64,000 nucleotides of DNA. Origin: Escherichia coli. GTDB lineage: Bacteria > Pseudomonadota > Gammaproteobacteria > Enterobacterales > Enterobacteriaceae. The translations under genes and the position numbers were made by a program. The number at the start of each line of letters is the position of its first letter. Position 1 is the stretch's first letter. This document shows, piece by piece, positions 12,706 to 14,256 of the stretch. The DNA lies in NCBI RefSeq assembly GCF_003018255.1, contig NZ_CP027440.1; one strand, given 5' to 3'. The notes beneath the pieces were generated by a model. That model saw only the letters and a list, made by a program, of their open reading frames with translations. It was not told the DNA's origin and did no database searches.

Positions 12706-14256
12706 ATGCAACGTCGTGATTTCTTAAAATATTCCGTCGCGCTGGGCGTGGCTTCGGCTTTGCCGCTGTGGAGCCGCGCAGTATTTGCGGCGGAACGCCC
12801 AACGTTACCGATCCCTGATTTGCTCACGACCGATGCCCGTAATCGCATTCAGTTAACTATTGGCGCAGGCCAGTCCACCTTTGGCGAGAAAACCGCAACT
12901 ACCTGGGGCTATAACGGCAATCTGCTGGGGCCGGCGGTGAAATTACAGCGCGGCAAAGCGGTAACGGTTGATATCTATAACCAACTGACGGAAGAGACGA
13001 CGTTGCACTGGCACGGGCTGGAAGTACCGGGTGAAGTCGACGGCGGCCCGCAGGGAATTATTCCGCCAGGTGGCAAGCGCTCGGTGACGTTGAACGTTGA
13101 TCAACCTGCCGCTACCTGCTGGTTCCATCCACATCAACATGGCAAGACCGGGCGACAGGTGGCGATGGGGCTGGCTGGTCTGGTGGTGATTGAAGATGAC
13201 GAGATCCTGAAATTAATGCTGCCAAAACAGTGGGGTATCGATGATGTTCCGGTGATCGTTCAGGATAAGAAATTTAGCGCTGACGGGCAGATTGATTATC
13301 AACTGGATGTGATGACCGCCGCTGTGGGTTGGTTTGGCGATACGTTGCTGACCAACGGTGTAATCTACCCGCAACACGCTGCCCCGCGTGGCTGGCTGCG
13401 CCTGCGTTTGCTCAATGGCTGTAATGCCCGCTCGCTCAATTTCGCCACCAGCGACAATCGCCCGCTTTATGTGATTGCCAGCGACGGCGGTCTGCTACCT
13501 GAACCGGTGAAGGTGAACGAGCTGCCAGTGCTGATGGGCGAGCGTTTTGAAGTGCTGGTGGAGGTTAACGACAACAAACCCTTTGACCTGGTGACGCTGC
13601 CGGTCAGCCAGATGGGGATGGCGATTGCGCCGTTTGACAAGCCGCATCCGGTAATGCGGATTCAGCCGATTGCCATTAGTGCCTCTGGTGCTTTGCCAGA
13701 CACATTAAGTAGCCTGCCTGCGTTCCCTTCGCTGGAAGGGCTGACGGTACGCAAGCTGCAACTTTCTATGGACCCAATGCTCGATATGATGGGGATGCAG
13801 ATGCTGATGGAGAAATATGGCGATCAGGCGATGGCCGGGATGGATCACAGCCAGATGATGGGGCATATGGGGCATGGCAATATGAATCATATGAACCACG
13901 GCGGGAAGTTCGATTTCCACCATGCCAATAAAATCAACGGTCAGGCGTTTGATATGAACAAGCCGATGTTTGCGGCGGCGAAAGGGCAATACGAACGTTG
14001 GGTTATCTCTGGCGTGGGCGACATGATGCTGCATCCGTTCCATATCCACGGTACGCAGTTCCGTATCTTGTCAGAAAATGGCAAACCGCCAGCGACGCAT
14101 CGCGCAGGCTGGAAAGATACCGTTAAGGTAGAAGGTAATGTCAGCGAAGTGCTGGTGAAGTTTAATCACGATGCACCGAAAGAACATGCTTATATGGCGC
14201 ACTGCCATTTGCTGGAGCATGAAGATACGGGGATGATGTTAGGGTTTACGGTATAA
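12706..14256 (+). CDS. cueO: multicopper oxidase CueO (Tat signal, Met-rich insert)
   Basis: [25 protein letters not shown]... twin-arginine motif; copper-binding His motifs; Met-rich stretch [15 protein letters not shown]... Confidence 0.95.

Follow-up and report, generated by a model that had tools for sequence, protein, structure and literature searches.

The chromosomal cueO locus in a 64-kb Escherichia coli window and the methionine-rich insert of its product

The cueO gene and the features of its locus

The stretch of DNA analyzed (the window, 64 kb in length) is E. coli chromosome throughout, collinear with K-12 from approximately 124 to 188 kb, and the gene order around cueO, speD-speE-yacC-cueO-gcd-hpt, is the same as in K-12. 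The annotations of two near-identical E. coli genomes place cueO at the same coordinates. The features of the locus are given below with window coordinates, strand and basis.

12630-12660 (+): CueR-type (MerR-class) cueO promoter; pattern match, K-12 identity and likeness to PcopA
12694-12698 (+): Shine-Dalgarno-like AAGGA, 7 nt upstream of the cueO ATG; read from the sequence
12706-14256 (+): cueO coding sequence, 516 codons and stop; ORF, NCBIfam, Pfam, PDB and K-12 match
12706-12789 (+): Tat signal peptide, residues 1-28, ending in AVFA; same as in K-12, mature PDB chains
13768-13905 (+): Met/His-rich insert, residues 355-400; amino acids the same as in K-12
13774-13812 (+): methionine-rich helix, residues 357-369; ranges from PMC6155172 and PMC11494321, residues verified in the window protein
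13813-13899 (+): flexible Met/His/Gly loop, residues 370-398; PMC6155172, amino acid sequence identical to K-12
13858-13875 (+): perfect 9-nt tandem duplication, ATGGGGCAT twice, encoding MGH-MGH; repeat search
14020-14028 (+): codons D439-M440-M441, with D439 and M441 part of the Cu5 site; ligand list from PMC11494321
14276-14297 (+): hairpin with a perfect 9-bp stem, ATGCCCGGA / TCCGGGCAT, 20 nt past the cueO stop, no T-run
14321-14414 (no strand assigned): REP-like palindromic pair in the convergent cueO-gcd spacer, palindromes at 14321-14350 and 14380-14414; inverted repeats

The gene had been named cueO in the initial annotation, and profile and structure comparisons bear this out. The product scored 980.5 bits over residues 1-516 against the NCBIfam equivalog NF008205 (multicopper oxidase CueO, cutoff 525), all three Pfam domains Cu-oxidase_3, Cu-oxidase, and Cu-oxidase_2 exceeded their gathering scores, and the PDB CueO chains 5b7e, 7f0v, and 1kv7 aligned over the full length at 99% identity. 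For the Tat signal, the Pfam TAT_signal score of 21.1 bits was marginally under the cutoff of 22.7; the N terminus is identical to that of K-12 CueO, and mature PDB chains, e.g., 1kv7, begin at residue 29 of the window protein. The three-domain cupredoxin fold and Tat export are shared with FtsP (SufI; PDB 2uxt match) and with plasmid-borne PcoA/CopA-type oxidases. Assignment to either was rejected, with 298 bits against the NCBIfam cutoff of 581 for FtsP and 116 bits against the NCBIfam cutoff of 479 for copper_res_A. FtsP is not known to bind copper. The AAGGA at 12694-12698 would act as the ribosome signal of cueO, as judged from its position, and the 99% identity to the characterized enzyme suggests that the product oxidizes Cu(I) and contributes to copper tolerance.

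The three cupredoxin domains bear the four His-rich copper motifs, and every T1, T2, T3, Cu5, Cu6, and Cu7 ligand is conserved in the window protein. The numbering of the T1 and trinuclear-cluster (T2/T3) ligands is the one we assume for CueO, and it is consistent with the identity to the PDB chains.

T1: H443, C500, H505, M510, all present
T2: H101, H446, all present
T3: H103, H141, H143, H448, H499, H501, all present
Cu5: M355, D360, D439, M441, all present (list from PMC11494321)
Cu6: M358, M362, present (list from PMC11494321)
Cu7: M364, M368, M376, present (list from PMC11494321)

The Met-rich insert, which belongs to domain III, lies in frame within the 516-amino-acid (aa) ORF, which runs from the ATG at 12706 to the stop at 14254-14256. 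The span 13768-13980 (+), to which the insert had been assigned, translates as the 46 residues originally quoted followed by 25 more ordinary codons; the start at 13768 is thus correct, and the end is to be moved to 13905, where the peptide stops as residue 400 of CueO. Within these 46 residues (355-400) are 14 Met (30%), 5 His, and 8 Gly, compared to 15 Met (3.2%) in the remaining 470 residues of CueO, an enrichment with a binomial P of approximately 1e-10. Among stop-free 46-residue stretches in all six frames of the window, the insert had the highest Met count (14), and the runner-up had 9. The methionine-rich helix bears the Cu5 ligand D360 together with the Cu6 and Cu7 ligands M358, M362, M364, and M368. 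The loop that follows (residues 370-398) is disordered in most CueO crystal structures (PMC6155172).

An antisense ORF at 13705-14049 (-), 114 aa in length and rich in His (19 His), spans the Met-rich region. It was rejected as a gene and regarded as a mechanical artifact, because an ATG codon becomes CAT when the other strand is read. The second most Met-rich six-frame windows fell in alternative frames of the yacH stretch. The yacH gene itself (5127-6884, -) is 1758 nt long in the window and its closest genomes versus 1854 nt in K-12, and its BLAST segments overlap at 5237-5520, which indicates a difference in internal repeat number.

Downstream of cueO, no canonical intrinsic terminator was called by the terminator scan, the hairpin at 14276-14297 included. 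The palindromes at 14321-14414 are called REP-like on the basis of the REP consensus. For window positions 1-25000, many extra BLAST places per genome were recorded (median 34), which fits dispersed repeats.

The CueR-type promoter and copper genes outside the window

The promoter that had been placed at 12630-12660 was found at exactly this site. It is composed of a -35 hexamer TTGACC (12630-12635), a 19-nt spacer TTCCCGTAAGGGGAAGGAC (12636-12654), and a -10 hexamer TATGCT (12655-12660), and it carries a perfect 7-5-7 dyad, CCTTCCC (12634-12640), GTAAG, and GGGAAGG (12646-12652). The dyad, ACCTTCCC-GTAAG-GGGAAGGA, is centered in the spacer and agrees with the published CueR signal ACCTTCCC-N5-TGGAAGGT with a 19-bp spacer, for which cueO (yacK) is listed as a regulon member (PMC1526738). 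The pattern TTGACCTTCC-N7-GGAAGG-NN-TANNNT matched the window only at this promoter and had 0 matches in 100 shuffles, and the region 12560-12710 is 100% identical to K-12. The K-12 PcopA, the other CueR-activated promoter, has the same -35 TTGACC, 19-nt spacer, and CCTTCC...GGAAGG dyad in register. In PcopA, the dyad is 6-7-6 (CCTTCC CCTTGCT GGAAGG) and the -10 is TAACCT, compared to 7-5-7 and TATGCT in PcueO. A generic sigma-70 scan of 12100-14500 called no promoter, because it allows only 16- to 18-nt spacers, and the missed call is not evidence against a 19-nt promoter of the MerR class.

The initial annotation had further described the copper efflux/oxidase module as apparently complete, which the window does not support. 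Neither copA nor cueR was found in the 64 kb by tblastn with K-12 CopA and CueR (nothing better than E = 0.9), and the window allows a judgment on the oxidase and its promoter only. On the K-12 map, copA and cueR are located at 508.9-511.4 kb and 514.0 kb and cueO at 137 kb, about 370-377 kb apart; by this map they would not be expected in the window, and that they are absent has no bearing on the rest of the genome.

Copies of cueO were also observed on true plasmids, namely, a 100-kb IncHI1B plasmid and E. coli plasmids of 260-273 kb. Most other "plasmid" matches, in records of 0.4-4.9 Mb, are probably chromosomal. On the E. fergusonii plasmid pRHB28-C21_3 (NZ_CP057359.1, 4685-10302), cueO lies between two ISVsa5 (IS10-like) transposase genes, and the IS end abuts the position equivalent to window 12657, inside the -10 hexamer, so that the CueR operator and the -35 element are lost. 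As read from the sequence, this arrangement resembles a composite transposon in which cueO has been severed from copper regulation.

Comparison with K-12 and conservation of the insert in E. coli

K-12 MG1655 CueO (b0123, formerly YacK; PDB 1KV7, 3OD3, and 5B7E) is 516 aa long like the window CueO and aligns to it with no gap. The Tat signal, the three cupredoxin domains, the copper ligands, the insert 355-400, and the promoter/5' region are common to both. The proteins are 99% identical and differ by G61E, A219V, S271N, L340F, and A464T (K-12 to window); none of these substitutions is a copper ligand or falls in the R-loop (residues 299-314) or the Met-rich helix (357-369), as both are defined in PMC6155172. 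At the nucleotide level, 40 of the 1551 positions of cueO differ from K-12, 34 of them synonymously, and all four differences in the insert (13776, 13806, 13863, and 13875) are synonymous, a pattern that fits purifying selection. This divergence is normal between E. coli lineages. The alignment to K-12 that had been proposed as a check on insert length showed no length difference and identical amino acids, as was also the case for the PDB CueO entries, and the statement that the insert is present and intact was thus confirmed, the quoted peptide being translated exactly.

The conservation of the locus was analyzed in complete E. coli genomes. The cueO gene was present in 5,424 of the 5,426, and a 241-nt query spanning the insert matched at least 95% identically in 5,429 of 5,431 records. 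Of 40 rows taken from across this query's ranking, 39 had equal matched lengths in record and query, the exception being strain L37. Apart from 2 records, the megablast identity bands exclude only indels of at least approximately four codons, and indels of this size in the insert region are essentially absent in E. coli. Strain L37, the E. coli match of lowest identity (89%) and 18 nt shorter, was considered as a natural insert-length variant and rejected as a decayed or low-quality copy: its cueO is an annotated frameshifted pseudogene with an internal stop, and the alignment is scrambled from approximately codon 213 to approximately codon 418 with scattered small indels.

The same data bear on the alternative of a Met-rich stretch that is low in complexity by chance, or of a decaying gene copy without function. 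The low-complexity look of the peptide, and nothing else, speaks for this. The binomial probability of the Met enrichment is against chance, and decay is opposed by the intact frame, by the ratio of 34 synonymous to 6 nonsynonymous differences with zero amino acid change in the insert, and by the retention of cueO in nearly all genomes of the survey, which leaves this explanation with a negligible probability. The region 12630-14256 is almost certainly an ordinary, intact chromosomal E. coli cueO locus, with 13768-13905 as its Met-rich insert. The gene, the Met-rich domain, and the CueR promoter are already known, and the state found is the normal one.

The particular allele is rare: only 1 of the 5,426 complete genomes was at least 99% identical over the 241 nt around the insert. 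The closest cueO alleles among these genomes were those of DETEC-S792 (WP_096121976.1), with 6 nucleotide differences from the window in the coding sequence, and JNE112863 (WP_001561425.1), with 17 over 12560-14300; both have the same locus coordinates. The window allele is a mosaic, S792-like for the most part with a JNE-like patch at 13323-13392 (70 nt, including A219V). The two copies of ATGGGGCAT are the sole tandem repeat in the insert region, and the synonymous variants at 13863 and 13875 make the repeat perfect in the window allele. That the mosaic allele (E61, V219, N271, F340, and T464) could alter activity or be prone to slippage, changing the insert length, is a conceivable but very remote proposition drawn from these variants.

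Mosaic relatedness typical of E. coli recombination was also seen along the window. Bases 1-9000 showed one difference each from JNE112863 and DETEC-S792, cueO and 25001-45000 were closest to DETEC-S792 (99.6-99.7%), and 45001-64000 was 100.0% identical to JNE23-011 and JNE112863. In the gap between rpnC and panC (23586-23839), a small frameshifted transposase remnant (in JNE112863) or a hypothetical protein (in S792) is annotated; S792 is approximately 50 nt shorter here, with 78 differences or gaps in kb 23-24, and the gap appears as a small indel-prone relic. Identity to K-12 is only about 87% in the yad fimbrial operon (yadC through yadN, approximately 25000-34000), and the 20-kb block concerned is matched at 80-90% by most E. 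coli genomes. The fhuA region (approximately 43000-46000) shows 130-300 differences per kb from K-12; both are highly polymorphic surface-protein loci. At 56595-56640 (+), in the degP-annotated region, the Rfam HtrA 5' UTR thermometer RF02700 was detected at 77 bits versus a gathering score of 52, and no other Rfam family scored above threshold in the window.

Role of the Met-rich insert in copper oxidation

The following mechanism is taken from the literature and applied to the window CueO by virtue of its identity to the enzyme studied. On a rise in cytoplasmic Cu(I), CueR, presumably encoded elsewhere in the genome, would bind the dyad CCTTCCC-N5-GGGAAGG within the unusually long 19-nt spacer. 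CueR is known to activate transcription by bending the 19-bp spacer (PMC8169799), and bending of the DNA here would allow sigma-70 RNA polymerase to use TTGACC and TATGCT. The 516-aa precursor would be exported by the Tat pathway via its RRDFLK signal, and in the periplasm the three-cupredoxin-domain enzyme would turn Cu(I) to Cu(II) at Cu5, with electrons expected to pass to the T1 copper and on to the trinuclear cluster, where O2 would be reduced to water. The Met-rich helix and the flexible loop are predicted to cover the T1 site, and their pool of thioethers may bind Cu(I) transiently, strip it from strong chelators, and pass it to Cu5.

The initial annotation had described the insert as thought to bind Cu(I) near the substrate site. 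The literature agrees in that the region holds Cu5 to Cu7 ligands, and the description is dated in that Cu5 is now regarded as the only substrate site, with negligible contributions of Cu6 and Cu7 (Contaldo et al. 2024, PMC11494321). In the same study, the Met-rich domain was not needed for weakly chelated Cu(I) to be oxidized and raised activity on strongly chelated Cu(I), presumably by transient multi-Met binding. The insert has been shown to help bring strongly chelated Cu(I) to Cu5 and not to be essential for oxidation (PNAS 2024; JACS Au 2025). Deletion of the domain in vivo barely lowered copper resistance in published assays (PMC11494321, PMC12510620).

A main function as a steric lid, which buries the T1 copper, keeps out bulky phenolics, and so confers Cu(I) specificity, with the Cu5 copper as an electron relay, is possible, if the less probable account. 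Phenol oxidase activity rises 33-fold when the domain is removed, and the oxidation of phenols is stimulated by Cu(II) at Cu5 (both PMC11494321), movements of the Met-rich helix and the R-loop uncover T1 and raise laccase activity (PMC6155172), and the window insert is identical to the insert studied. A lid alone leaves the Met richness unexplained, as well as the better oxidation of chelated Cu(I) by a larger, Met-richer domain (PMC12041951), and deletion of the equivalent hairpin in Thermus CueO gave no rise in phenol oxidase activity. The shutting out of phenolics by the lid is well documented, and the lid role is compatible with the recruitment role and does not exclude it.

The larger domain is that of Hafnia alvei CueO (PDB 8R4F; match of 724 bits), an enzyme that shows 67% identity to E. 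coli CueO and complements E. coli (PMC12041951). The two enzymes share their fold and their Cu5 site, and in both a Met-rich domain lies over the T1 copper. In H. alvei, this domain exceeds that of E. coli by 22 residues and 6 Met, and chelated Cu(I) is oxidized better (PMC12041951). The window insert, unlike that of H. alvei, is of the shorter E. coli type. Diversity of insert length across species has already been documented (PMC12041951, PMC11494321).

It is doubtful that the insert serves mainly in maturation, capturing Cu(I) so that apo-CueO is metallated ahead of or following Tat export, or in partnering, docking a copper partner in the periplasm, e.g., CusF or CopA. This was raised as a possibility in the discussion of PMC11494321. 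In the same paper, complementation by variants lacking the domain restored copper resistance almost to the wild-type level, which is against an essential partner interaction; the window offers no support for either function. Very improbable is a passive role apart from catalysis, either as a sponge or buffer for copper in the periplasm or as a sacrificial Met antioxidant sink. With 14 Met and 5 His among its 46 residues, and with the extra Cu sites seen on crystal soaking, the insert would suit such a role. No stably bound extra Cu(I) was left after excess copper was removed (PMC11494321), and a sponge is largely refuted by the failure of catalytically dead CueO that keeps the Met-rich domain to protect cells; protection rests on catalysis and not on copper binding capacity, even anaerobically (PMC12510620). 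Recruitment of strongly chelated Cu(I) to Cu5 is the probable role of the insert here.

The significance of the locus beyond correct annotation is small, as cueO is a textbook gene of copper tolerance and occupies its usual place in the chromosome. The outcomes are corrective: the insert is not a length variant, the coordinates first given for it overshoot, and completeness of the copper module cannot be claimed from the window. If the mosaic allele were indeed prone to slippage, slippage at MGH-MGH could tune Cu(I) recruitment in the manner of the longer Hafnia domain. The functional description attached to the insert should be updated to state that it facilitates Cu(I) recruitment and is dispensable for weakly chelated Cu(I).
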